In this document: in pieces, positions 13,008-25,831 of the stretch
How the letters are laid out: every line of letters starts with the position of its first letter
Position numbering within the stretch: the stretch's first letter is position 1
NCBI GenBank assembly: GCA_028875725.1
Contig: JAPPCR010000006.1
Span: forward strand, 563,786 to 627,785
DNA: 64,000 bases
Source: Acidobacteriota bacterium
Lineage (GTDB): Bacteria; Acidobacteriota; Thermoanaerobaculia; Multivoradales; Multivoraceae
Direction: 5' to 3'
Translations under genes and position numbers: made by a program
Notes under the pieces: model-generated
Told to the model about the DNA's origin: nothing
The model's input: the letters and a program-made list of their open reading frames with translations, nothing else
Databases searched by the model: none

Positions 13008-14726
13008 TCAGTGGCCCTCGCCGCGGACTAGCGTTACGACCTGGTCGGCGGCAGCGCCGTCGAAGCTCTCCACCAGACCGTCGGGCCAGACGACATCGAA
13101 GCTCTCCACCGATTCGGCCGCGCCCAGGCCGAGGTGGGCCGTGGCGGGTCCGGCGGAGAGGTAGCTGCCGGGCGGCAGCGCGTGCAGGAGCCGCGGACCG
13201 TCCGGCGTACGGACCGTGATCCGGGCGCCGATCGCCTCGCGGTCGAGGCGGGGGTCGAACGCGCGGACCCGCAGCCAGTTCGCAACGGTCGGTTCGTCGC
13301 TGGCGGCGCCCGCGTCAATCGTCAGGTTGCGGAGAATCCGTGGCGCTCCGTCGAGGTTGGCGATCACGAGGTCGAGGTCGCCGTCCCGGTCCAGGTCGGC
13401 GGGTACGAGCGCCCGGCTGAGCCCGAGTTCGGTCCACGGCCGCTGGGCCGAAGCGTCGGCGAAGCGGCCTTCGTCGTTGACCAGGAGAAGGTTCGGTTCG
13501 GCGTACTCGGACCAGAACGCGGGAGGAGCGTCGACGCCACCGGGCGTAGCTAGCGCCGACGGCCGCCGCTTGACCGCTCCGTTCGCCACCGCGAGGTCGA
13601 GGTCGCCGTCGTTGTCGGCGTCGAAGAAGGCGGTGCCGAAGCCGGTCAGATCGAGGCTCGCCGCGCCGAGTTCGGTGTCGATCGTCGCGTCCTCGAAGCC
13701 GGGCAGCATGAGGTTGCGGTAGTAGGTGTTCGTCTCGGTGATCAGGTGGGTCACGAACAGGTCGAGGTCCAGGTCGAGGTCGGCGTCGCCGGTGGCGATG
13801 CCCATTCCCGCCTCGCTGTTGCCCCAGCGGTTGAACGCGGAGCCTTGCAGGACGCCGTCGTCCAGGAAACGCCCACCGCCCTGGTGGGTCCAGAGGTTGT
13901 TCGGGTCGGCGTCGTTCGCGACGTAGATGTCCACTTCGCCGTCGTGATCGAAGTCCGCGGCGACGACACCGAGGCCGGCGTCTGCCACCGCGGTGATGCC
14001 GGCGGCGGCGCTGACGTCTTCGAACCCGTTACCGCCCAGGTTGTGGAGCAGGACGTCGCTCAGGCCCTCGAACTCGGTGGGGCCACAGAAGTCCCGCCTT
14101 CCGCCGTGCTGCGAGCAGACGCGCGCCGGGTCGAACGCAACGTAGCGGGCGACGTAGAGGTCGAGGTAGCCGTCGCGGTCGTAGTCGAGCAGGGCGGCGG
14201 ACGAGGACCAGCCGGGAACAGCCGCGTTCCAGGCCGCGGAGCGGTCAGCGAACACGCCCTTGCCGTCGTTGAGGAAGAGGCGGTCCGGCCCGACCCGGGT
14301 CACGTAGAGGTCGAGGTCGCCGTCGTTGTCCAGATCGCCGACGGCGCAGCCCATGCCGTCGCCCTCCAGTCCGGCGGCCGTCGTGGCGTCTGTGAAGTGG
14401 CCGGCGTCGTGCTGGACGTAGAAGCGGTTGCCGCCGGCCGCCGGGGCGACGACGTACAGGTCGAGGTCGCCATCGCCGTCGGCGTCGAACACCGCCAGGC
14501 CGCCACCCATCACCGCCGGCATGGGGTAGGTCGAGTCCGTGCCGCTCGGCAGGACGTGGTCGATGCCGCTCTCGGCTGTCACGTCGACGAAGCGGACGGC
14601 GGGCGTGGCCTCCGGGCCGGCTCCCGGCGCTTCCGCCGGCGCCACACCGGAGTCGGGCGGCGCCGAACAGGCAGACGCGCTAGCCAGAACCAGGCCCGCA
14701 ACCCGGGCCGCGCGGTTCCGCGCCAC
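13008..14726 (-). CDS. CRTAC1-family lipoprotein (FG-GAP/VCBS repeats plus C-terminal ASPIC/UnbV domain); start set at GTG preceding lipobox
   Basis: Repeated FDADGDGDLDLYV / DLDNDGDLDLYV / FDHDGEVDIYV FG-GAP motifs. C-terminal ASPIC/UnbV-like block (RITVRTPDGPRLLHALPPGSYLSAG...FDVVWPDG). The six-frame ORF runs to 15119, but a lipoprotein signal (ARNRAARVAGLVLASASAC) begins at GTG 14726. Confidence 0.65.
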   Translation of the reverse strand: MARNRAARVAGLVLASASACSAPPDSGVAPAEAPGAGPEATPAVRFVDVTAESGIDHVLPSGTDSTYPMPAVMGGGLAVFDADGDGDLDLYVVAPAAGGNRFYVQHDAGHFTDATTAAGLEGDGMGCAVGDLDNDGDLDLYVTRVGPDRLFLNDGKGVFADRSAAWNAAVPGWSSSAALLDYDRDGYLDLYVARYVAFDPARVCSQHGGRRDFCGPTEFEGLSDVLLHNLGGNGFEDVSAAAGITAVADAGLGVVAADFDHDGEVDIYVANDADPNNLWTHQGGGRFLDDGVLQGSAFNRWGNSEAGMGIATGDADLDLDLDLFVTHLITETNTYYRNLMLPGFEDATIDTELGAASLDLTGFGTAFFDADNDGDLDLAVANGAVKRRPSALATPGGVDAPPAFWSEYAEPNLLLVNDEGRFADASAQRPWTELGLSRALVPADLDRDGDLDLVIANLDGAPRILRNLTIDAGAASDEPTVANWLRVRAFDPRLDREAIGARITVRTPDGPRLLHALPPGSYLSAGPATAHLGLGAAESVESFDVVWPDGLVESFDGAAADQVVTLVRGEGH

Positions 14727-14812
14727 TCGCGAACCGGGCCGAGCCCCCGCGGTTGGACGCCTGGATGACACGGTGCCGGGATGCGAGCGAGACGCCCGCT
14801 CTCCCACAGGTG

Positions 14813-15217
14813 TTACTGCCAGGCCCCCTGGATCGCACCGACCATCGCAAGGCCGATCGTCATGTGTCCGGCATTGATCAGCCACAGCTTGAGGGACCGC
14901 TGCTCGAACAGGTACTGGACCCCCATCAGCATCGACGCGATGCCGAGGCCGAGCAGGAGACCGACGTGGATTCCGACCATGTAGCCCCCGCCCATGTCCA
15001 TCATCACCATGCCGACGACGATGGCCGCGATCAACTCCAGAACGAACGAGCCGCCCATCGTCTTGACCATGTTCGATTCCGGCGGGTTCTCCATGTCGAT
15101 GCCCATCTCGGCGGCCCACGCCTTGCCGAACAGGAAGGAGTACCAGACGGCGCCGAAGGCGAAGAAGGCAACGGCGGAGACGACGACGGCAAGCCAGTTC
15201 AGGTCGGCAAAGTGCAT
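14813..15217 (-). CDS. DUF1761-family integral membrane protein
   Basis: 134 aa with 4 predicted TM segments. N-terminus LNWLAVVVSAVAFFAFGAVWYSFLFGKAW is typical of DUF1761. Confidence 0.5.
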   Translation of the reverse strand: MHFADLNWLAVVVSAVAFFAFGAVWYSFLFGKAWAAEMGIDMENPPESNMVKTMGGSFVLELIAAIVVGMVMMDMGGGYMVGIHVGLLLGLGIASMLMGVQYLFEQRSLKLWLINAGHMTIGLAMVGAIQGAWQ

Positions 15218-15289: not shown

Positions 15290-15763
15290 TTACTCCTCAG
15301 GCGCGCCGAAATGCTCGATCATGTAGTCGTCGTAGGGCCCGGCCAGGAAGTTCAGGAAGATCTCGTTGACCAGCTTGACCGCCTTGCCGGCGGCGTACTC
15401 GACGTCTCCGTCCAGGCTGCGGACCTCGATCGACACCTTCCCGCCCCGGTTCCGGCAGCGGCAGCTCACTTTCGACGCGTCGATCCGGCGGTGGGCAGGC
15501 AGGTCGTCGCTCGCGCGCTCGGCAACGAACCTGCGGAGTTCCCGATCCATCTCCGACGGATAGGGCACTCCGGGCAAGAGATCGACGAACACCACCGCCC
15601 TGCGTCGCGGTTCGAACCGGAGCCGATGAGGTTCGGGAGCGTGCCAGAGGAAACGGCATTCGAGGTTCCCTTTGCGGTCCTCGCTTGTTCCGAACCCCCG
15701 GAAGATCCCCTTGTCGGCGTAGTTCCGCAGGCGCTTCAACACAGTTTCTCGCAACGGGGTCAT
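15290..15763 (-). CDS. hypothetical protein
   Basis: 157 aa ORF with coding-like composition. No recognisable family. Confidence 0.35.
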   Translation of the reverse strand: MTPLRETVLKRLRNYADKGIFRGFGTSEDRKGNLECRFLWHAPEPHRLRFEPRRRAVVFVDLLPGVPYPSEMDRELRRFVAERASDDLPAHRRIDASKVSCRCRNRGGKVSIEVRSLDGDVEYAAGKAVKLVNEIFLNFLAGPYDDYMIEHFGAPEE

Positions 15764-15908
15764 GTCAATTCACTAGTCCCCACGACGACCGGTCGTACGC
15801 AGTGCGGTCGCCGCTTCGCGGCGCGATTTCCCGGCGGCCTCCGGCCGCAGCGGGTCGGAAGACCCGCGCACGCAGAGCACCGCTTCCGGCTCTCGGCGAC
15901 GTCCAGCT

Positions 15909-16080
15909 GGCTCGGGGACGGGTGTGGAGGGTCCCAGCGGGCTAGAGCCAAGCGACTGCCCGAGACCTTGCATGAACCACGGACAAGCCGGAGCGCAGGC
16001 GACCGAAGCGAACGCCCAACCTCACATCCACCAAGCGGGCGTGAGCGTCCGCTGGGACCCTCCACACCCGTCCACGAGCC
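15909..16080. repeat. intergenic long-stem hairpin element, copy 1 (about 30 bp stem, about 110 nt interior)
   Basis: The arm ggctcggggacgggtgtggagggtcccagcgg (15909-15940) pairs with ccgctgggaccctccacacccgtccacgagcc (16049-16080); one mismatch over about 32 bp. The interior shares a conserved core with copy 2 at about 47.98 kb. Confidence 0.7.
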
Positions 16081-16098
16081 AGCGGGTGCCCGCCACCG

Positions 16099-18090
16099 TC
16101 AGTGGTAGTAGGCCATGCAGCCGGGTTCGACCTTGCGGGGCAGGCCGGGCGGATACTCGTTGGTCCAGAACTCCTTGATGGCTTGGCAGTTGATGAGAGT
16201 GGAGACGCCGTCGTTGGCGGCCATCTCGTAGCTGCGGGGCAGCGCTTCGCGGAGCTGTTCGGGGGAGGTGACGTACTCGCCGCGAGCGCCGAGGCCTTCG
16301 GCGATCTTGTCGTAGCGCAGGTTCTCCTGGAAGAGGTACATGTGCATCGACCGCGTGGCGCGGCGAGCCGATCCGTAGACGCCCCAGGCGTTGTTGTTGT
16401 AGACGATCATGACCGCCGGGATCCGGTACTTCGCCAGGGTCTCGAACTCCATGCCGGAGTAGGCGATGCCGCCGTCGCCGGTGATCCCGAACACGGGCGC
16501 CCCGCGGTACGGCTCCTGGGGACCGACGCCGTTCATCACCGCGGCGCCGGCGCCGACCGTGTAGCCGACGTCGGGTCCGATCGCGCCGTACTGGTAGGCG
16601 CCGTTCAGGATCTGGCCCGGCCGGTGGGCGCGCAGCCAGCGCCGGGTGTAGCGGGCGATGCCGTAGCCGCCCGAGACCACCGTCGTCTGTTCCTTCGGCA
16701 GGTCGCCGGAGTACAGGAAGTTCGAGAGTTCCTGCGCGATGACGGCCGGGTGAATCGTGTCGGTGGCCGCGCTGTGCTTCAGCCCGAGCTCGTACCACTC
16801 CGCGTTCTGCTTTTCGAACGCGTCGCGGGCGGTGGCGAGCTCGTCGCGCCAGGCCGGACGCGACGCCGCCGGCAGTGCCTCTGCGAGAGCCTCCAGGCCG
16901 CCACGGGCGCTGGCAACGAGTCCCAGATCGACCGGCAGGTTGCGGCCGATGTCCGCCGCGTCGGGGTCGATCCGGATCACCTTGGCGTCCGGGTCGAAGG
17001 CGACTTCACCGACGCCGGGCATCGAGTACTGACCGACGAAGATGACGAGGTCGGCCGAGAGCAGGGCATCCGGTCCGGTGCTCACCGACAGCGGATGGCT
17101 GTCCGGGAAGTGGCCGCGCATCGGCCCGGATTCGACGACTGCGATGTCCGCCCGCTCCGCCACCGTGCGCAGGACATCCCAGGCCCGGTCGTAGAACACG
17201 CCGGTCGAGGCGACGATGATCGGCCGCTCGGCCTTCCCGATCATCTCGACGACCTTCCCGGTGTCCGCCCTGGACGGGTGGGGCAGGGCCTCGGTGCGGT
17301 AGGCGTTCTTGTCGTGGTAGTAGAGCAGGTCGTCCGGCGACTCGAACTGGGCCCGCGCGACCTCACCGGTGAAGTCGAGGTGGACCGGCCGCGGCACGCC
17401 GGTGCGCAGGTGCCGGAAGGCGTAGGCGGCGTACTCGTAGACCCGGTTCGGGGTGATCAGCCGCTTGCCGTACTTTTTCAACCCCACGGTGGTCGGTTGC
17501 TGGTAGCCGCGCTGGATGCCGCGTTCCGTGTCGTCACCGCCGACCGTCATGTTGCTCGCCAGCACGAGCAGCGGCGTGCGTGCGGCGTTCGCGGCGCCGA
17601 TGTTCATGATCATGTTCGTGAACCCCGGGCCCTCGGTGCCCGAGCAGGCGGCGGCCTCGCCGGTGACCCGGATGAAGCCGTCGGCGGCGGCGCACATGCT
17701 GCCCTCGGTGCGGCCGCCGTAGGTGGGGATGCCCTCGGCGGCGATCGCGTTGATCACCTGGTAGTTGCCCGGCGCGCAGAAGAGCGCCTTGAGGCCCTCG
17801 TTGGCGCAGGCGCGGGCGAACACCTGGGCGCCGTTCATCGGGAACTCGGCCGGGTCGGGGGCCTCGTTTCTGGTGCGGGGAATCTCCTCCGGAACGCTGA
17901 TTGGCCGATCCTCGCGGTCGGCGGCGGCAGCCCGGGCCTGCTGTGCGAACAGGGCGGCGGCGCCGACGCCGGCAGCGCTCGTGGCGACGAAGCTGCGGCG
18001 GGAGACGCCGGAATCTGCCTTGGCGGCGGCAGGGTCTGCGGCGTCTTGCGCCGGAGAGAGCGTACGGGGCGGGCGTTGCGGTTCGTTCAT
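16099..18090 (-). CDS. Tat-exported thiamine-pyrophosphate-dependent enzyme (ALS/POX/BFD superfamily)
   Basis: 663 aa. Twin-arginine signal SRRSFVATSAAGVGAAALFAQQARA. TPP-enzyme N-terminal, middle and C-terminal domains (GDGG..N TPP-binding region GITGDGGIAYSGMEFETL...NN). 4 bp overlap with the downstream cytochrome c gene. Confidence 0.65.
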   Translation of the reverse strand: MNEPQRPPRTLSPAQDAADPAAAKADSGVSRRSFVATSAAGVGAAALFAQQARAAAADREDRPISVPEEIPRTRNEAPDPAEFPMNGAQVFARACANEGLKALFCAPGNYQVINAIAAEGIPTYGGRTEGSMCAAADGFIRVTGEAAACSGTEGPGFTNMIMNIGAANAARTPLLVLASNMTVGGDDTERGIQRGYQQPTTVGLKKYGKRLITPNRVYEYAAYAFRHLRTGVPRPVHLDFTGEVARAQFESPDDLLYYHDKNAYRTEALPHPSRADTGKVVEMIGKAERPIIVASTGVFYDRAWDVLRTVAERADIAVVESGPMRGHFPDSHPLSVSTGPDALLSADLVIFVGQYSMPGVGEVAFDPDAKVIRIDPDAADIGRNLPVDLGLVASARGGLEALAEALPAASRPAWRDELATARDAFEKQNAEWYELGLKHSAATDTIHPAVIAQELSNFLYSGDLPKEQTTVVSGGYGIARYTRRWLRAHRPGQILNGAYQYGAIGPDVGYTVGAGAAVMNGVGPQEPYRGAPVFGITGDGGIAYSGMEFETLAKYRIPAVMIVYNNNAWGVYGSARRATRSMHMYLFQENLRYDKIAEGLGARGEYVTSPEQLREALPRSYEMAANDGVSTLINCQAIKEFWTNEYPPGLPRKVEPGCMAYYH

Positions 18091-18536
18091 GGTGGATTCT
18101 CCGGTTCAGCCGCCGCGCGGTACTCCTCGGGGCCGAGGCTGCGCAGGTAGTGGACGAGTTCCCAGATCTCCGTGTCGTCGAGTTCGGCCTCGAAGGGCGG
18201 CATGTCGAGGCCGGCGCCGAACTTCGTGGAGCGGAAGAGATCGCCGTCCGTGGTCCCGAACCGCCAGCGTTCGGGGTCGGTGAGGTCGGTGGCCTCGAAG
18301 TCGATGTTCTCGAGCGCGCGGCCGTCGAAGCCGTGGCAGATCTGGCAGTGGCGCAGGTAGTGGGTGCGACCTCTCTTCTCGGCGGCCTCGGTGTACGGCG
18401 TCGGGTTGACGGCCGGTACCGCCGGATCGTCCGCCGCGCCGGCGCCCTGGGACGCCTCGGACTGGCCGGCCGCGGCCGCGGCCAGGCCGAGCGACAGGAA
18501 CGTCGCCAGGCGGAGCGCTCTTGTGGCAACTGTCAT
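18087..18536 (-). CDS. mono-heme c-type cytochrome (periplasmic)
   Basis: Start reassigned to the internal ATG at 18536 (MTVATRALRLATFLSLGLAAAAAGQ signal peptide); the upstream 370 codons of the six-frame ORF are Arg/Pro-rich non-coding-like. Single CQICH heme-binding motif. Confidence 0.6.
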   Translation of the reverse strand: MTVATRALRLATFLSLGLAAAAAGQSEASQGAGAADDPAVPAVNPTPYTEAAEKRGRTHYLRHCQICHGFDGRALENIDFEATDLTDPERWRFGTTDGDLFRSTKFGAGLDMPPFEAELDDTEIWELVHYLRSLGPEEYRAAAEPENPP

Positions 18537-18685: not shown

Positions 18686-21055
18686 CTATTGCGCGGGAGC
18701 GGGAAGCAATTCGATTCTGGCTTCCGCCGCCTCGAGGATGGCGGGGCGGGTGTAGAGCAGGGGAAACGCCTGGTCGTTGGCCCAGGGCTGGAACAGGTCC
18801 CGGTAGTGCGGGCTCCTGGGGTCCCCGGACTGGCCTGGATTGTTCATCACCACCGAGGCGTCCCAGTTGCCGACGTCGATGACCATGCGGAAGGAGGCGC
18901 CGGAGCGCTGGTTGAAGCCGTCGCCGTAGCTGGTGTTGCCGACCGTGTCGCCGGAGCCGCCGCGCTCGGCGGGGCCGACGTCGGCGAGCCGGCGGATGTC
19001 GTCCGGAAGGTGCGCCGACAGTGGATGCCGCAGTTCGATCTGGTGCAGGTCGCCCCAGCGCCAGGCGACGGGGTCGGGGCCCAGGCGCTCGCTGACGTCG
19101 ACGTACGCGGCCCGCAGGCTGTCGAGGAGCGCTTCGTCGCGCGCCCGCCGCGGCCGGTCGCCGAGCCTCGGATCCATCTCTTCGAGCATCCGGAGCAGGT
19201 GCTCGTCCTGGACCGGGAGCGGGTCCTCGCCCGCCCCGAGGGCCGCCGCCATCCGCCGGCCGACCTCGGCTTCGAGGTGCCGTCGCCACCAGACTTCGAA
19301 GAGGGCGGCCGCGGCGCTGTCCGCGGCGAGCTCCGCGTTCCAGCCGCCCAGGAGCTCGAGCGCCGGCCCGGCCTCCGGTGTCGGACTCGCTCGTCCCAGC
19401 AGCGCGTGAAGACGGCGCGCGGGTATCGAGACGTAGTCGGTCTGGAGCCGGACGGCGCCCTCGACCGTCATTGCGTCCTCGGCGTCCAGCACTTCGCCGA
19501 TCCGCTGCCGCCGGTACGGCCCGGCCCACTCCCAGCCCAGCGGCACGTCGTAGCCGGCGGGCAGGTTCATCTCGTTGGCGGTCGCCACCCAGCCGCGCTC
19601 CGGATTGAACTCGACCGGCAGTTCGTCCATGTCCCGGTAACCGCTCCACTCGTAGCGGCCGTCGCCCGGCACCGGCAGCAGACCGTCCCAGTTCGGCCGG
19701 ACCGGCGCCAGGCCGCCCGGTTTCCAGCCGATGTTGCCGCTCGTGTCGGCGTAGACCTGGTTCTCGGACGGCGTTCCCCAGCGGTTCATCGCCGCCAGGA
19801 ACTGATCCCAGTTGCGCGCCCGGATGTACTCGATCGACCCGAGGTAGGGCGCCATGCCGGGCTCCAGCCAGGCCGCGCGCAGACCGATCGCCAGGTCGCG
19901 GTCGGGGTCCCGGTAGAGCACGGGGCCATGGTGGGTGAAGCGAAGGTCCACGGTGCGGGCGTCTTCGCCGCGAACCGGAATCGTCTCCTCGATCGTCTCC
20001 ATCGGCAGCCAGTTGCCCCGGTGCTCGTAGAAGTCTGGTTCGCCGGGTTTCGTCCGGTAAATGTAGAGGTCTTCCTGGTCGATGCTGAAAATTGTCAGCC
20101 CGAAGGCGATCGTGCCGTTGTGTCCGATCGAAATGCCGGGCAGCGCGGGCTCGCCGGCACCGATCAGGTCGAGGTCCGGTGAACTGAGGTGGACGATGTA
20201 GCGGAGCGAGGGCACGGCCTGTGTGCGGTGCGGGTCGTTGGCGAGCAGTGGCCGGCCTGTGGCGGTACGTCGCGGCGAGATCGCCCAGTTGTTGCTGCCC
20301 TGGGATGCCGGGCCGACCTCGTCCTGAAAGCCTGGTTCGAGGTCACCGAAGCGAACGCCGCGGGTGCCCAGCCGGTACAGGTCGAGTGCCTTGGGGGCCG
20401 CCCGGAAGGCGTCGAGATCGAGGCCTGCGGGTACGGCGAGCCGATGGTCTGGCTGGTACCGGTCACGGAGGGCCAGCGCCGCGGCTCCGTGCTCCGCCAG
20501 AAACCTCGCGCGGGAGAACTCGCTGGCGGCGTTTCGCAGCAGGCCATGGCTGCGGATCCGCGTCACCGCCTCAGGGGTCCAGTGCGACGGCTCGTAGCCC
20601 AGCGCCTCGAACTCCGGCGGCAGCAGCTCGCGACGCTCCAGCACCAGGTCGACGTAGGCGTTGACGCCTCGCGTCCAGGCGCTGACGATGCGCTTCGTGT
20701 CCGAGGCGTAGGCGAGCCACTCGGCGTGCATGTCGCCGCGGTAGAGCAGCAGCCGGGCGGCCCGGTCCTGCTCGACGAAGTGGGGCCCGAAGACCTCGGA
20801 GAGCGTCCCCTCGCCGCGCCGGCGCCAGAGGTCGATCTGCCACAGCCGGTCGCGGGCCGCGTTCCAGCCCTGGGCGAAGAACAGGTCGTCCTGGCCGCCG
20901 GCGAAGACGTGGGCGACGCCCCAGCGGTCGACCAGGATCTCGACCGACGCGTCGAGCCCCGGGACCTCGAAGCGGGTTGTCTCGATCTCCTGGGCAACCG
21001 TCGTCGAGGCGAGGAACAGGGCGAGCGCGGGGGCCGTCTGGCGGAGCTTGCGCAT
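18686..21055 (-). CDS. penicillin acylase family (Ntn-hydrolase S45) protein, possible N-acyl-homoserine-lactone acylase
   Basis: Signal peptide. Conserved N-terminus (WGVAHVFAGGQDDLFFAQGWNAARDRLWQIDLWRR). Beta-subunit N-terminal nucleophile motif SNNWAISPRRTATGRPLLANDPH. Confidence 0.7.
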   Translation of the reverse strand: MRKLRQTAPALALFLASTTVAQEIETTRFEVPGLDASVEILVDRWGVAHVFAGGQDDLFFAQGWNAARDRLWQIDLWRRRGEGTLSEVFGPHFVEQDRAARLLLYRGDMHAEWLAYASDTKRIVSAWTRGVNAYVDLVLERRELLPPEFEALGYEPSHWTPEAVTRIRSHGLLRNAASEFSRARFLAEHGAAALALRDRYQPDHRLAVPAGLDLDAFRAAPKALDLYRLGTRGVRFGDLEPGFQDEVGPASQGSNNWAISPRRTATGRPLLANDPHRTQAVPSLRYIVHLSSPDLDLIGAGEPALPGISIGHNGTIAFGLTIFSIDQEDLYIYRTKPGEPDFYEHRGNWLPMETIEETIPVRGEDARTVDLRFTHHGPVLYRDPDRDLAIGLRAAWLEPGMAPYLGSIEYIRARNWDQFLAAMNRWGTPSENQVYADTSGNIGWKPGGLAPVRPNWDGLLPVPGDGRYEWSGYRDMDELPVEFNPERGWVATANEMNLPAGYDVPLGWEWAGPYRRQRIGEVLDAEDAMTVEGAVRLQTDYVSIPARRLHALLGRASPTPEAGPALELLGGWNAELAADSAAAALFEVWWRRHLEAEVGRRMAAALGAGEDPLPVQDEHLLRMLEEMDPRLGDRPRRARDEALLDSLRAAYVDVSERLGPDPVAWRWGDLHQIELRHPLSAHLPDDIRRLADVGPAERGGSGDTVGNTSYGDGFNQRSGASFRMVIDVGNWDASVVMNNPGQSGDPRSPHYRDLFQPWANDQAFPLLYTRPAILEAAEARIELLPAPAQ

Positions 21056-21107
21056 CTGCGAAAGCGCACGATACCAATGGGCCGCTCGGCTAAGCTCTTC
21101 GCCCGTG

Positions 21108-23069
21108 ATGACTCAGACCTCTTGGTCGAAGGCGTGTGGTGCGATTGCTGTCGCGGCGCTCATGATGCCGGCCGCGCCAGCTCTCGTCGCGCAGGACGAG
21201 GCGGCGGACGCGGCGGGTGCCGGAGATCAGGACGGTTCGGCTCCGGAGACCGTGTTCTACGAAACGGCCACGGTGCGGGCCCGCGCTCTGGAAGGCGCGA
21301 CCGCCTCGGTCCAGGTCGTCGACGCGGACGAGTTGCGGCACCTTGCGGTGCGCGACGCGGCCGAGGCGCTGCGGCTGGTGCCCGGCGCCTGGGTGCTCGG
21401 CAACGACTCCAGCGCCTCTCTCGCGGGCGTATCGCTGCGAGGCGGCGACGCGAACTTCTCCCTCGTTTTGATCGACGGCGTGCCGATGGCCGACAGCACG
21501 GACCAGTACGGCGGCGCCTTCCCGCTCGGCAGCGTGGGAGGGGCCGAGATCGAGCGCCTGGAGGTCGTGCGCGGGCCGCTGTCGTCGTTCTACGGGTCGA
21601 GTTCCCTGGCCGGGGCGGTGCAGTTGATCACCGCGGCGCCGCGCGACGAGGCGCCCTTTCTGGGCTGGAGCGCGCAAGCGGGAGATCACGACCACCTGAG
21701 CAGCCGGCTTTCCTGGGGACGCGCGGGCGAGTCGTCGCACGGTTCGATCAACGCGGCGGTTCGCGAGGAACAGGGCCGGGTCGGCGAGGATGCGCTGGAG
21801 CAGCAGACGCTCAGCGCGCGCTGGGGCCGGAACCTGGGCGAGGCGTCCGCGCTTCGCCTCTCGGGGCGCTTCTCCGACTGGCAGGCGGACGACTACTCGG
21901 ACGGCTCCGGCGGCCCTGTCTTCGGCAGCGGAGACCTGCGGGAGTCAGATCACAGCGATCTCGGCCTCGCGGCGACGGTCGACTTCGGTGCCGGGGAGGC
22001 CTGGAGCCACACGCTGCGGTCGACCTTCTACAAACACACCCTCGACCGGACCAGTCCTCCGATCGTTCCCGTCGTGCCGCCGATCACCGAGTCCACGGAG
22101 TTCGACGACCTGCGGGTTGCCTGGACCGGCGCCTTCTCTCCGGCGGGCGGAGCGCCGTATGACCTCAGCCTGGGCGTCGAAGGCCTCGCCGAGGAGGGCC
22201 GCAACCAGAGTCTTCTTCTTCTGCCGCCTTACTTCGGCGGCCCTCTGGCCGGCGACTATCTGATCGAGCGGGAGCGAGTGGGCGCGTTCGCGGAGTGGCG
22301 GTGGAGCCGCGGCGGCTTCGTGGCCGAACTCGGTGCGCGAGCCGACTTCTTCGAAGGTGAAGGCGAGGAAGTGAGTCCACGGGTCGGCTTTCGCTACACG
22401 CCCGAGGGTGACGCCTGGTCGGTGCGGGCGTCGGCGGGCGAGGCGTTCAAGCTGCCGAGCCTCTACGCGCTGGCGACTCCACGCGCGATCGGAGGCAATC
22501 CGAACTTGCTGGCGGAGACGAGCGCCGGGGCGGATTTGGGAGTCGAGTTCCGGGCCTCTGACGCTTCGGTGAGGGGCGGCATCACCCTGTTCTCGAACCG
22601 ATTCGAGAACCTGATCGACTTCGACTTCGACACCTTTCAGATCGTGAACCGGAGCAAGGTGGACGCCGAAGGCGTGGAGGCGTTTCTCGTCTGGAACCCG
22701 TCGGCGCGCGTCGGAGTCGATGTCCGCCTCACCTCGCAGGACACCGAGGACCTGGCCACCGGGCGGACACTGCGCCGCAGGCCGGATCTCTACGGCGGCG
22801 TCGGCCTGCGGGTTGACCTGAGCGAGTCGGTCCGGCTCGGCCTCGAGGCCCGGCACACCGGCTCCTATCTCGACGAGCAGGTTCCGGCGCCGTTCCGGAC
22901 CTCGGTCGCCGGCCGGGACCTGGTTGGCTTGTCGCTCTCCTGGCAGGCCGCGGACCGGTGGCGGATGAGCCTGCGCGCCGACAATGCCTTCGATGAGTCG
23001 TACGAGACGCAGGTTGGTTTCCCGGGCCCTGAACGGTCCGTGAGGATCGGAGTTCGTTATGGGCACTAG
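21108..23069 (+). CDS. TonB-dependent receptor (plug plus beta-barrel)
   Basis: Signal peptide (MTQTSWSKACGAIAVAALMMPAAPALVAQ) at an internal Met; the ORF extends to 21048. Plug motifs (VQVVDADEL...AEALRLVPGAWV...LRGGDANFSLVLIDGVPM). About 650 aa. Confidence 0.65.
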   Translation: MTQTSWSKACGAIAVAALMMPAAPALVAQDEAADAAGAGDQDGSAPETVFYETATVRARALEGATASVQVVDADELRHLAVRDAAEALRLVPGAWVLGNDSSASLAGVSLRGGDANFSLVLIDGVPMADSTDQYGGAFPLGSVGGAEIERLEVVRGPLSSFYGSSSLAGAVQLITAAPRDEAPFLGWSAQAGDHDHLSSRLSWGRAGESSHGSINAAVREEQGRVGEDALEQQTLSARWGRNLGEASALRLSGRFSDWQADDYSDGSGGPVFGSGDLRESDHSDLGLAATVDFGAGEAWSHTLRSTFYKHTLDRTSPPIVPVVPPITESTEFDDLRVAWTGAFSPAGGAPYDLSLGVEGLAEEGRNQSLLLLPPYFGGPLAGDYLIERERVGAFAEWRWSRGGFVAELGARADFFEGEGEEVSPRVGFRYTPEGDAWSVRASAGEAFKLPSLYALATPRAIGGNPNLLAETSAGADLGVEFRASDASVRGGITLFSNRFENLIDFDFDTFQIVNRSKVDAEGVEAFLVWNPSARVGVDVRLTSQDTEDLATGRTLRRRPDLYGGVGLRVDLSESVRLGLEARHTGSYLDEQVPAPFRTSVAGRDLVGLSLSWQAADRWRMSLRADNAFDESYETQVGFPGPERSVRIGVRYGH

Positions 23070-23081
23070 GAGGATGAACGG

Positions 23082-23861
23082 ATGAAGACGATGTTGACGG
23101 TTGTCGCCGCAATGCTGTTGGTGATGGGAACGGTCGCCTGCGTCGAGATCCGGGTAGGCGCCCCGGATGACGCCGAGACCGAAGAGGCCGCGGTCGAACC
23201 GGCCGCGACCCTGAACGAGCTCAGTGCCGAGGAAGTCGAGGCAGGCTTCCAGTCGCTCTTCGACGGCGAGTCGCTGGAGCACTGGCGCGGCTTCAAGCTG
23301 GACCAGGTGCCGGCGGGCTGGTCGGCAGCCGACGGCGTGGTCCACTTCCTGCCGCCTACCGGCGACGACGCCGGACCGCGAGCCGACCTGCTGACCCGGG
23401 AGCAGTACCGGTCATTCGAGTTCCGCTTCGACTGGGCCGTAACGGCGGGAGGCAACAGCGGCGTCATGTTCCACGTCTCCGAGGACGCCCCGGCCTCCTA
23501 CTCGACCGGCCCGGAGTTTCAGATTCTGGATGATGACGGCCACCGGGACGGTCAGCGCATGGAGACTTCCGCGGCCTCTAACTACGCCCTTCACGCTCGG
23601 CAGGGCGGTGAGCTGGTACCGGTGGGCGAGTTCAACACTTCCGCCCTGCGGGTGGAAGGAAACCGGGTCACGCACTGGTTGAACGGCGAGAAGGTGGTCG
23701 AGTACATGCTCTGGGACGACGACTGGAAGGCGCTGGTTGAGGCCAGCAAGTTCGCTTCGATGCCCGGCTACGGGATGATGGAGACGGGCCACATCGCGCT
23801 CCAGGACCACGGCAACGAGATCTGGTTCCGCAACCTCCGCATCCTCGTGCTGCCTGATTGA
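23082..23861 (+). CDS. DUF1080 (3-keto-disaccharide hydrolase-like, LamG-fold) lipoprotein
   Basis: Lipobox MLLVMGTVAC. Motifs FDGESLEHWRG...GNSGVMFHV...GHIALQDHGNEIWFRNLRI are typical of DUF1080. Confidence 0.55.
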   Translation: MKTMLTVVAAMLLVMGTVACVEIRVGAPDDAETEEAAVEPAATLNELSAEEVEAGFQSLFDGESLEHWRGFKLDQVPAGWSAADGVVHFLPPTGDDAGPRADLLTREQYRSFEFRFDWAVTAGGNSGVMFHVSEDAPASYSTGPEFQILDDDGHRDGQRMETSAASNYALHARQGGELVPVGEFNTSALRVEGNRVTHWLNGEKVVEYMLWDDDWKALVEASKFASMPGYGMMETGHIALQDHGNEIWFRNLRILVLPD

Positions 23862-25831
23862 TGGACGACCCCGCCTCCGGCCTGGCCTGGTTCAAGGTCG
23901 CCGACCTCGACGAGCTGGCCGAGAACCGGGTCAAGACGGTGGTGGCGGGCCGCCGCTCCATTTGCCTGACGCACCACGACGGGCAGTACGGCGCGCTGGA
24001 CAACCGCTGTCCGCACCAGGGTGGCCCGTTGGGGGAGGGATCGATCGAGAACGGCTGGTTGCGTTGCCCGTGGCATGGCTGGGACTACTGCCCGCTCACG
24101 GGCAAGTCGCCGGCGGGCTACGACGAGCGGGTGCCGACCTACGCAGTCGAGGTCCGCGGCGACGGCATCTATGTCGGTCTGGAGAAAGAGGTCGAGCGAC
24201 CGCGCACGGTGAGCGACGCGATGGTCGAGACCTTTGTCAACTGGGGGATGACCCACGTCTTCGGAATGGTCGGCCATTCGAACCTCGGACTGGCCGACGC
24301 GATCCGGGCGCAGTGCGAGGCCGGCGCCCTCCAGTACGTCGGTGTCCGCCATGAGGGCGCGGCGGCGTTTGCCGCCTCGGCCTATGGCAAGTTGACCGGC
24401 CGGCCCGCTGCCTGTTTGACGATCGCCGGACCGGGCGCCACGAACCTGCTCACCGGGATGTGGGACGCGCGGATGGACCGTGCTCCGATCCTGGCGCTGA
24501 CCGGCCAGGTGGACACCCAGGTCCTGGGCCCCGGGGCGTTCCAGGAGGTCGACCTCTCGGCTGCCTTTGCCGGCGTCGCCGCGATGAGTCACGCCGTCTA
24601 CCGGGACAGCCGGCACGTGGAACTGGCGAATCTGGCCTGCAAGAACGCGATCCTCAAGCGCGACGTGGCGCACCTCATCTTCCCGGACGAGGTTCAGACG
24701 CTGCCTTCGGAAGCTTCTGCCGGGTCGCCCGAGGGTCGGCTGACGCCACCCGGGATCACCCCACCGCCCGAGGCCACGGAACGCGCCCTGGAGTTGATTC
24801 GCGGCGCTCGCCGACCGGTCATCATCGTCGGCCACGGCGCCCGCTTCGAGATGGGCGGCGTCACGGCTCTCGCGGAGCGGTTGAACGCGCCGGTGGTCAC
24901 GACGTTCAAGGCGAAGGGGCTGATCTCCGACGACCACCCGCTCGGCTGCGGCGTCCTCGGCCGCAGTGGCACGCCGGTCGCGAGCTGGTTCATGAACGAG
25001 AGCGACCTGCTCATCGTGTTCGGCGCCTCGTTCTCGAACCACACCGGGATCACGACCTTCAAGCCGGTCATCCAGGTCGACTTCGAGGCGATGGCCCTCG
25101 GCAAGTTCCACGCCGTCGACGTGCCCGTCTGGGGCGAGATCGGGGTCACCGCGCGGCTGTTCGCGGAGGCGCTCGGCGACGGCGCCACCGACACCATGGA
25201 CCAGCGGCCGGAGGTCGCTGAGCGCTGGCGGATCTGGCGGCTGGAGAAGGAACGCCGTCTCGCGGATGTCGGCGAGGCCGGCGTGAGTTCCGCGGCCGTG
25301 TTCGCGTCGCTGAACCGCTGCCTGCCCGAGGACGCGATCATCGCCGTCGACGTCGGCAACAACACGTACTCCTTCGGCCGCTACTTCGAGTGCCGGCGGC
25401 AGGCCGTGCTGATGTCGGGATATCTCGGTTCGATCGGGTTCGGCTACCCGGCGGCGATGGGCGCCTGGGCGGCGACGCAGACGGCCGACGAGCGGTTCGC
25501 CGGCCGGCCGGTGGTGGCGATCACCGGCGACGGCGGCTTCGGCCAGTACCTTGGAGAGGTGATGACCGCCGTCCACCACCGGATGAACATCACCCACGTT
25601 CTGCTGAACAACAGCGAGCTCGGCAAGATCTCGAAGGAGCAGCGGGCGATCGAACTGCCCGTCTGGATGACCGACCTGACGAACCCGAACTTCGCCGAGT
25701 TCGTGACGAACTGCGGTGGCCTCGGCATCCGGGTCGAGGACGCGGGCGAACTCGACAGTGCGCTCGAGCGTGCGCTGGACCACGATGGGCCGGCCACGGT
25801 CGAGGTCGTCGCGGACCCGCTCCTGGTGTAG
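23858..25831 (+). CDS. Rieske [2Fe-2S] domain fused to a TPP-dependent enzyme (ALS/POX family)
   Basis: N-terminal Rieske motifs CPHQGGPL...CPWHGWDY. The remainder is TPP-enzyme domains (PAACLTIAGPGATNL; GDGGFGQY...NN TPP-binding). 4 bp overlap with the upstream DUF1080 gene. Confidence 0.65.
   Translation: MMDDPASGLAWFKVADLDELAENRVKTVVAGRRSICLTHHDGQYGALDNRCPHQGGPLGEGSIENGWLRCPWHGWDYCPLTGKSPAGYDERVPTYAVEVRGDGIYVGLEKEVERPRTVSDAMVETFVNWGMTHVFGMVGHSNLGLADAIRAQCEAGALQYVGVRHEGAAAFAASAYGKLTGRPAACLTIAGPGATNLLTGMWDARMDRAPILALTGQVDTQVLGPGAFQEVDLSAAFAGVAAMSHAVYRDSRHVELANLACKNAILKRDVAHLIFPDEVQTLPSEASAGSPEGRLTPPGITPPPEATERALELIRGARRPVIIVGHGARFEMGGVTALAERLNAPVVTTFKAKGLISDDHPLGCGVLGRSGTPVASWFMNESDLLIVFGASFSNHTGITTFKPVIQVDFEAMALGKFHAVDVPVWGEIGVTARLFAEALGDGATDTMDQRPEVAERWRIWRLEKERRLADVGEAGVSSAAVFASLNRCLPEDAIIAVDVGNNTYSFGRYFECRRQAVLMSGYLGSIGFGYPAAMGAWAATQTADERFAGRPVVAITGDGGFGQYLGEVMTAVHHRMNITHVLLNNSELGKISKEQRAIELPVWMTDLTNPNFAEFVTNCGGLGIRVEDAGELDSALERALDHDGPATVEVVADPLLV

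Follow-up and report, generated by a model that had tools for sequence, protein, structure and literature searches.

The genes of torCAD encode, in that order, the cytochrome c TorC, the trimethylamine N-oxide (TMAO) reductase TorA, which is exported by twin-arginine translocation (Tat), and the cytoplasmic chaperone TorD, and in SorAB the catalytic subunit likewise travels by Tat and its cytochrome c by Sec. One-electron acceptors can oxidize enamines of thiamine diphosphate (ThDP, also called thiamine pyrophosphate or TPP), as PFOR and PoxB show, and PFOR carries out this one-electron oxidation of hydroxyethyl-ThDP at a metal centre without a flavin. ThDP enzymology is, to our knowledge, entirely cytoplasmic or organellar. 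Here we describe a locus in a stretch of 64,000 nucleotides from an Acidobacteriota bacterium (contig JAPPCR010000006.1, positions 563,786 to 627,785 of the forward strand; hereafter "the window") in which a ThDP enzyme with a predicted Tat leader is encoded between a monoheme cytochrome c and a small protein that we call X. We consider it very probable that this is a genuine, conserved three-gene module of a periplasmic ThDP enzyme and a cytochrome c, and we lean towards the reading that the enzyme is an oxidative ThDP dehydrogenase donating electrons to its cytochrome c in the periplasm.

All genes of interest at the locus lie on the minus strand, with the 5' to 3' order acylase, cytochrome c, ThDP enzyme and X (Table 1), and the ThDP-enzyme gene is 99% identical to that of a sponge-associated Holophagales metagenome-assembled genome (MAG; locus L007). 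The enzyme is a member of the pyruvate oxidase (POX)/acetolactate synthase (ALS)/decarboxylase (DC) superfamily of ThDP enzymes, with PF02776, PF00205 and PF02775 all matched above their gathering scores. Its E129, within R-T-E-G, aligns with the cofactor-activating glutamate (R-N-E-Q) of 8vzj, a 2-hydroxyacyl-CoA lyase/synthase, and both E129 and the ThDP/Mg motif G538-D539-x-G541...N565-N566-N567 are invariant in 41 family sequences of less than 88% mutual identity, the set on which all invariant columns named here were read. Judged from these residues, the catalytic equipment is intact. The C-terminus, a family-specific feature, is almost invariant as well, ending in ...EPGCMAYYH with Y661 invariant.

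Ahead of the Pyr domain the enzyme carries an N-terminal extension of 84 residues. Its residues 30-54 (SRRSFVATSAAGVGAAALFAQQARA) comprise S30-R31-R32-S-F34-V, an uncharged hydrophobic (h-) region of 18 residues, an arginine in the c-region and then A52-R53-A54, the predicted signal-peptidase site, before AAAD, so that an S-R-R-x-F-type motif, a moderate h-region and an A-x-A site occur together, as in Tat substrates, and the motif and h-region are conserved among orthologues. A homologue search returned 2,097 relatives, and we surveyed the leaders of the best 120 of these (67-97% identity, about 650 residues), which come from Thermoanaerobaculia, Bryobacterales, Acidobacteriia, Gammaproteobacteria and Tara Oceans samples. 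All 120 read x-RR-x-hydrophobic: 117 have S/T-R-R-x-F, two have S-R-R-x-L or S-R-R-x-I, and the last was first matched as P-R-R-x-A through a script artefact, the same protein also reading VSRRGF. Among these homologues the n-region before the arginine pair is variable (median 13 residues), the pair is followed by an uncharged stretch with a median of 18 residues and a mean Kyte-Doolittle hydropathy of 1.19, and PF10518 was recorded on one protein. Behind the leader comes a family-specific linker (residues about 55-84) reading I.IP.EIP.T..E...PA.FPM, in which P67, P80 and F83, together with M85 just beyond it, are invariant and which the cytoplasmic relatives do not have.

The family ends sharply, as became clear when 1.84 billion representatives were searched exhaustively with HMMER. 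Full-length members scored 478-800 bits at 41-58% identity, and the next-best proteins scored about 195 bits at 32% identity, were about 550 residues long and aligned only from residue 85; the leaderless relatives that we read as examples begin right at the Pyr domain (residue ~85). On these comparisons, leader and linker are a defining feature of the family, conserved at the protein level, and we infer that the enzyme is exported to the periplasm. The same boundary gives an opposing reading its foothold, since Met85 stands at the exact site where leaderless relatives begin: the RR leader might be a non-working Tat signal, with the protein either cytoplasmic from a start at Met85 or anchored in the membrane by its uncleaved leader, and the RR is indeed missing from one divergent homologue. 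We regard this as very improbable, because the S/T-R-R-x-F motif, the h-region and the 30-residue linker are kept at 67-97% identity across phyla, as would not be expected of untranslated DNA, the ATGA overlap described below sets the start of the TPP gene at 18090, and the partner cytochrome c is necessarily periplasmic. A cytoplasmic enzyme made from an internal start at Met85 was rejected as a candidate, since leader and linker are conserved as protein and that start is therefore excluded.

The homologue without the RR is the most divergent member of the family (protein P0214, locus L167; 41% identity). Its N-terminus reads MAFPEEIFLKKAAVGAG..., with a stop codon just upstream, it has R-H-D-G in place of the family's R-T-E-G and thus Asp for the cofactor-activating Glu, and X still lies downstream of it. 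P0214 may be an export-altered or a catalytically altered paralogue.

The cytochrome has a hydrophobic Sec-type signal peptide (MTVATRALRLATFLSLGLAAAAAG, with Q following the predicted cut), a single CxxCH motif (CQICH), the axial-Met motif DMPPF, and matches to PF13442 and PF00034 above their cut-offs, the combination expected of a class-I c-type cytochrome; its closest solved sequences are the C-terminal domain of CcoP and cytochromes c552. We read it as a standard His/Met class-I electron carrier, as predicted from these motifs. An alternative ATG at about 18569 would lengthen its n-region by 11 residues. In a Sumerlaeota MAG the open reading frame (ORF) upstream of the TPP gene (L073, 3053-3913) is about 287 codons long and reaches 283 bits with the cytochrome profile, where the range elsewhere is about 150-210; this suggests a duplicated, putatively diheme partner cytochrome.

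Because both are read from the minus strand, the gene for the cytochrome c lies 5' of (upstream of) the TPP gene, and the two share 4 bp, with a Shine-Dalgarno-like GGAG 9 nt 5' of the TPP ATG. By a rough script, 22 of the 69 loci that could be scored share this -4 overlap, and most others have gaps of 2-56 nt. Spacing is looser on either side of the pair in the window (150 bp between acylase and cytochrome, 335 bp between the TPP gene and X). The original prediction, which had named a TPP-superfamily enzyme, a clear twin-arginine leader and a secreted single-CxxCH cytochrome c, is borne out on all three by the Pfam domains, by the motif in every surveyed homologue next to leaderless relatives that start at the catalytic domain, and by the signal peptide and heme motif. 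It had also seen the 4-bp overlap correctly but had placed the cytochrome gene downstream, whereas it is the cytochrome stop that runs over the TPP start. Its reading of the pair as a periplasmic oxidative decarboxylation with electrons going to cytochrome c is plausible.

Scanning one genome per species, we found 547 genomes that encode a relative and scored linkage in the 80 best loci. The carriers are Thermoanaerobaculia and sponge symbionts, Bryobacterales, Terriglobia, marine Pseudohongiellaceae and OM182, Gemmatimonadota and Sumerlaeota. A cytochrome c gene adjoins the TPP gene in the same direction in 77 of the 80 loci, and X does so in 73, with at least four of the misses falling at contig ends. 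In the contigs of four diverse homologues, a PF13442 cytochrome of 106-150 aa stood directly upstream in 4/4, and a Pfam-less protein of 157-160 aa, homologous to the X of the window, directly downstream in 3/4 (L002, L004, L005). Approached from the other side, by a metagenome search anchored on X, a family TPP gene was found beside X in 50 of the 52 loci with room upstream. Where all three genes were visible in these metagenome loci, the orders were cytochrome-TPP-X (17 loci), TPP-X-cytochrome (16 loci, from soil metagenomes: L102, L118, L126, L128-L130, L135, L136, L141, L146, L149, L155, L159, L161, L165, L166) and X-cytochrome-TPP (2 loci: L114, L117), all of them cyclic rotations of one co-directional trio. 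That the trio is kept while its order rotates is strong evidence for functional linkage, and the association reaches the divergent members, with X and cytochrome beside a TPP enzyme of 53% identity and X beside one of 41%. What was first observed at this locus is real and goes well past anything that chance would give.

When the flanking ORFs were clustered all against all, no further neighbour proved to be conserved across lineages. Neighbours limited to particular lineages comprise genes for a pyrroloquinoline quinone (PQQ) alcohol dehydrogenase, a molybdenum (Mo) aldehyde oxidase, an amidohydrolase and a cyclase. In seven loci of Gammaproteobacteria and one of Acidobacteriota (L002/L003, L039 and L048 among the loci), the distance from the cassette to the PQQ alcohol dehydrogenase gene is no more than about 3-6 kb, and 13 loci of Gammaproteobacteria and one of Gemmatimonadota have a gene of the molybdopterin aldehyde-oxidase/xanthine-dehydrogenase family downstream in convergent orientation. 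These two neighbours form a periplasmic alcohol/aldehyde theme limited to certain lineages and give a weak hint at aldehydes as substrates. On the contig of the 53%-identity member (P0212, L168), the cassette of cytochrome c, TPP gene and X sits between ubiE/ORF/ubiB and a gene of the tatA family, and X is followed by a 141-aa ORF and hisE (PRA-PH). This ubi-tat neighbourhood is a classical one in Gammaproteobacteria, and the L168 cassette sits inside it.

The original prediction had further proposed that the penicillin-amidase-family acylase could feed the TPP enzyme with an amide-cleavage product. Its gene does lie upstream on the same strand, 150 bp away and with a signal peptide, and the arrangement is kept in 30 close relatives, all of which would suit a pathway of acylase, cytochrome and TPP enzyme in which the acylase releases a periplasmic product that the ThDP enzyme then oxidizes. 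Among the 80 best loci, however, the acylase adjoins in 30/30 of the window's own clade and in 0/50 of the others, nor is it beside the module in L001-L005. All 30 acylase-positive loci have TPP genes at 89% identity or more and are therefore explained by shared ancestry, and what an acylase releases (amines, fatty or aryl-acetic acids) is no substrate for ThDP. The chance of such a pathway seems slight to us, and the acylase, adjacent only within one clade, was rejected as a pathway part. The unit seen earlier as two genes had lacked its third conserved member, X.

Table 1. Features of the ThDP-enzyme locus, in window coordinates
Feature	Position	Strand	Basis or remark
Penicillin-amidase-family gene (acylase)	18686..21055	minus	PF01804, E 8e-207; with signal peptide
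Monoheme class-I c-type cytochrome gene, 149 aa	18087..18536	minus	PF13442, E 8e-11; PF00034, E 1.6e-6
Heme-binding motif CQICH of the cytochrome	18333-18347	minus	single CxxCH
ATGA overlap of cytochrome c stop TGA and TPP start ATG (ccaccATGAacg)	18087..18090	minus	sequence reading
ThDP (TPP) enzyme gene with Tat leader, 663 aa	16099..18090	minus	three Pfam domains
Predicted twin-arginine signal peptide, TPP-enzyme residues 1-54	17929..18090	minus	sequence reading and homologue motif
Pyr domain of TPP enzyme, residues 85-187	17530-17838	minus	PF02776, E 5e-20
Middle domain of TPP enzyme, residues 279-402	16885-17256	minus	PF00205, E 7e-23
PP domain of TPP enzyme, residues 482-627	16210-16647	minus	PF02775, E 2e-20
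38-nt inverted repeat, intergenic hairpin between TPP stop and gene X	15903..16086	unassigned	repeat and RNA fold
Gene X, 157 aa, third conserved gene	15290..15763	minus	homologues beside the TPP gene elsewhere

X is a basic protein that lacks a signal peptide; its isoelectric point is 8.8 here, the family median 9.5, and it carries the motifs YADRG(V/I)FRxF, W40, P-x-H-R-R-I-D and LVNEIFxxFLxGPY. Nothing significant was matched in Pfam (E up to 10, with 50 members searched as well), in NCBIfam-style scans or in a profile search of the PDB. Its AlphaFold2 (AF2) model (pLDDT 93.9) has the topology alpha-beta4-alpha-beta2-alpha2, and Foldseek against the PDB returned weak matches (E 0.04-0.1, template-modelling (TM) score about 0.5) that split between chaperones of type III secretion systems (ShcF, SycT) and DNA-binding 'double-wing' domains (the C-terminal domain of MotA, PA14_16140). 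With the redox enzyme maturation protein (REMP) families TorD/DmsD and NapD there was no sequence match, and Foldseek returned no REMP. By analogy with torCAD, X would be a dedicated cytoplasmic accessory, most likely a private chaperone for maturation or Tat proofreading of the enzyme. A role as regulator is less likely, and stays alive because of the basic charge and the MotA-like matches.

In the window, the gap between the TPP gene and X holds an inverted repeat with 38-nt arms that are 95% complementary around a 108-nt spacer, folding as RNA at -195 kcal/mol (z = -5.1). Among close relatives, a hairpin occurs at the same position in L007, L008, L023, L025 and L045; L010 and L011, in which X starts 4 nt after the TPP stop, have none. 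The hairpin is lineage-specific and lies outside the conserved module, and it may be an inserted element or a signal for mRNA processing or stability. It belongs to no Rfam family, the sole match being sR53 at chance level (17.7 bits against a gathering score of 49 bits, E 0.08), and promoter or terminator consensus in the hairpin region did not rise above background.

Returning to the enzyme, we compared it with the named ThDP families, and ALS, POX, oxalyl-CoA decarboxylase (OXC), 2-hydroxyacyl-CoA lyase (HACL), Xsc, glyoxylate carboligase (GCL) and IolD were all rejected on NCBIfam scores far under the cut-offs. The best match, to an ALS-named model, reached 186.6 bits against a cut-off of 587, and every match fell 3- to 8-fold short. 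TIGR00118 (acetolactate synthase) gave 150.2 bits against 538, the pyruvate oxidase model 96.1 against 742, and the OXC and HACL models 141.1 against 557 and 130 against 600; matches to pyruvate oxidases of the PDB were partial (residues 128-422, E 2e-16). Database names within the family are generic ('thiamine pyrophosphate-binding protein', 'acetolactate synthase large subunit-like'). The closest solved structures by sequence are BbmA, OXC, 2-hydroxyacyl-CoA lyases and benzaldehyde lyase (BAL) (E about 1e-40), and Foldseek with the AF2 model (pLDDT 74.6, pTM 0.80) returned the same BbmA/OXC/HACL/BAL group at target-normalised TM 0.73-0.81, 21-25% identity and probability 1.0, with glyoxylate carboligase at rank 31. 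Aldehydes, formyl groups or oxalyl groups are what these nearest relatives activate, and the nucleotide bound by several of them is ADP, not FAD. The invariant Y196-Q197-Q198 is the counterpart of the Y-E-E loop in the active site of OXC.

In the mechanism that we propose, the ThDP enzyme would fold in the cytoplasm, bind ThDP/Mg2+ and dimerise, and would then be exported in folded form by Tat and lose its leader by a cut after A-R-A; since ThDP sites lie at dimer interfaces, Tat would be the only pathway able to export an active enzyme. The cytochrome c would be exported separately by Sec and loaded with heme in the periplasm. There, decarboxylation of a 2-oxo acid or addition of an aldehyde would form hydroxyalkyl-ThDP (the enamine), the cytochrome c would oxidize the enamine in two one-electron steps and pass the electrons to the aerobic chain, and the acyl-ThDP would be hydrolysed to a carboxylic acid. 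We infer the direction of transfer, from enzyme to cytochrome, along with the substrate class and the role of X. The substrate would be a 2-oxo acid or an aldehyde, and the periplasmic location would exclude CoA substrates, CoA thioesters not being available in that compartment. Electrons might also be imagined to run the other way, with the cytochrome c donating to a ThDP-bound acyl intermediate in a reductive or radical reaction. Co-occurrence alone would be compatible with this, but class-I cytochromes c are much weaker reductants than hydroxyalkyl-ThDP/acyl-ThDP couples, so that reduction of acyl-ThDP by such a cytochrome is thermodynamically uphill, and of the readings weighed here this is the one to which we give the least credence, close to none.

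Several observations weigh against the oxidative, cytochrome-linked reading of the module. The nearest solved relatives of the enzyme (HACL, OXC, BAL and BbmA) are non-redox, pyruvate oxidase and ALS are absent from the top 50 of the Foldseek list, and the middle domain, read directly from the alignment, has S-T-G in place of the nucleotide-binding G-x-G; given those relatives and the absence of POX from that top 50, a PoxB-like flavin relay is not indicated. We know of no precedent for direct transfer from ThDP to heme, and full-text literature searches on periplasmic or Tat-exported ThDP enzymes and on the host clade returned no description. Three loci, all Bryobacterales, have no adjoining cytochrome (one that we inspected has a different large unannotated ORF at the upstream site), and the divergent P0214 has no RR. 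X, finally, differs by its basic charge from secretion chaperones, which are acidic, and its resemblance to known folds is weak and divided.

Most of the weight on this side falls to the main rival, that the enzyme is periplasmic but does no redox chemistry and works as a ThDP lyase, decarboxylase or carboligase that breaks or makes a C-C bond in an exogenous alpha-hydroxyketone, diketone or 2-oxo acid, with the cytochrome serving some other linked step (e.g., re-oxidising a product-handling enzyme) or acting as a structural subunit. The solved relatives, among which 2-hydroxyacyl-CoA synthase (HACS) and formolase also count, are all of this non-redox kind, the sequence gives no evidence of FAD, and cytochrome-using enzymes of the PQQ alcohol-dehydrogenase and Mo aldehyde-oxidase families are encoded nearby in some lineages. 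Set against this, the cytochrome stays beside the TPP gene in 77/80 genomes, does so through rotation of the gene order and often with stop and start overlapping, and the neighbourhood holds no conserved third redox enzyme. We hold the non-redox lyase to be unlikely, though not negligibly so, and retain the oxidative dehydrogenase as our moderately favoured reading.

Both the location and the partner set of this ThDP enzyme are unprecedented. The fuller proposal, that this is the first periplasmic ThDP family, a flavin-free dehydrogenase whose enamine is oxidized directly by a dedicated heme c protein and whose private Tat chaperone X has a new fold, is one that we offer tentatively, as possible. 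If true, external 2-oxo acids or aldehydes would serve aerobic bacteria of soil, sea and sponges as respiratory substrates with no need for import. The function of the module bears on the use of small oxidized carbon compounds by abundant uncultured heterotrophs. A Tat-exported ThDP enzyme would extend the list of Tat-carried cofactors to ThDP, and it poses a mechanistic question, namely by what route a ThDP carbanion could be coupled to heme, a one-electron acceptor, when no flavin stands between them. With three small genes, heterologous expression is feasible and cytochrome reduction offers a simple readout.

The surroundings of the module in the window (21048-23861 on the plus strand and 13008-15217 on the minus strand) are of a kind typical for a heterotroph focused on its envelope: they encode a TonB-dependent receptor, a signal-peptide-bearing DUF1080/3-keto-disaccharide-hydrolase protein, an ASPIC/UnbV FG-GAP protein and a DUF1761 protein. 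In the clustering of flanking ORFs, none of these four neighbours was kept beside the module in other lineages. At 23858-25831 (plus strand) lies a gene for a 657-aa protein in which an N-terminal Rieske [2Fe-2S] domain (PF00355, E 2e-17) is fused to a PoxB-like ThDP enzyme that scores 375 bits with the NCBIfam pyruvate oxidase model, under its cut-off of 742. In this fusion, apparently cytoplasmic, a ThDP enzyme and a one-electron carrier are unusually paired for the second time in the window.

Set beside the described systems, the module shares with torCAD a three-part logic of cytochrome, Tat-exported enzyme and small cytoplasmic protein, in the window even in the same order with the small protein last. 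There is no homology between the two, however: the module has ThDP and a soluble monoheme cytochrome where torCAD has molybdopterin and a membrane pentaheme cytochrome, X has an alpha/beta fold without similarity to TorD, and electrons in the module are predicted to run from enzyme to cytochrome. SorAB sulfite dehydrogenase and the flavocytochrome c dehydrogenases FccAB and PchCF resemble it in joining a soluble periplasmic dehydrogenase, whose catalytic subunit travels by Tat, to a dedicated small c-type cytochrome that travels by Sec, but they use Mo or FAD cofactors, none ThDP, and have no X gene. With PoxB and pyruvate oxidase the enzyme shares superfamily and three-domain fold, and the chemistry that we propose is that of PoxB (2-oxo acid to acid, CO2 and 2 electrons for the respiratory chain); PoxB, in contrast, is cytoplasmic and peripheral to the membrane, contains FAD and reduces ubiquinone, and its sequence relation to the module's enzyme, which gives no evidence of FAD, is distant. 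OXC, HACL/HACS, BAL and BbmA are closest in fold and sequence, yet these are cytoplasmic, non-redox and mostly CoA-dependent, without leader, cytochrome or X. PFOR and its relatives (PFOR/OFOR) supply a precedent for the flavin-free one-electron oxidation of a ThDP intermediate that we propose, with an unrelated domain organisation, [4Fe-4S] clusters and a cytoplasmic location. The module is thus laid out like torCAD and SorAB, has a proposed chemistry like that of PoxB and a fold nearest to OXC, HACL and BAL, and is a member of none of them.

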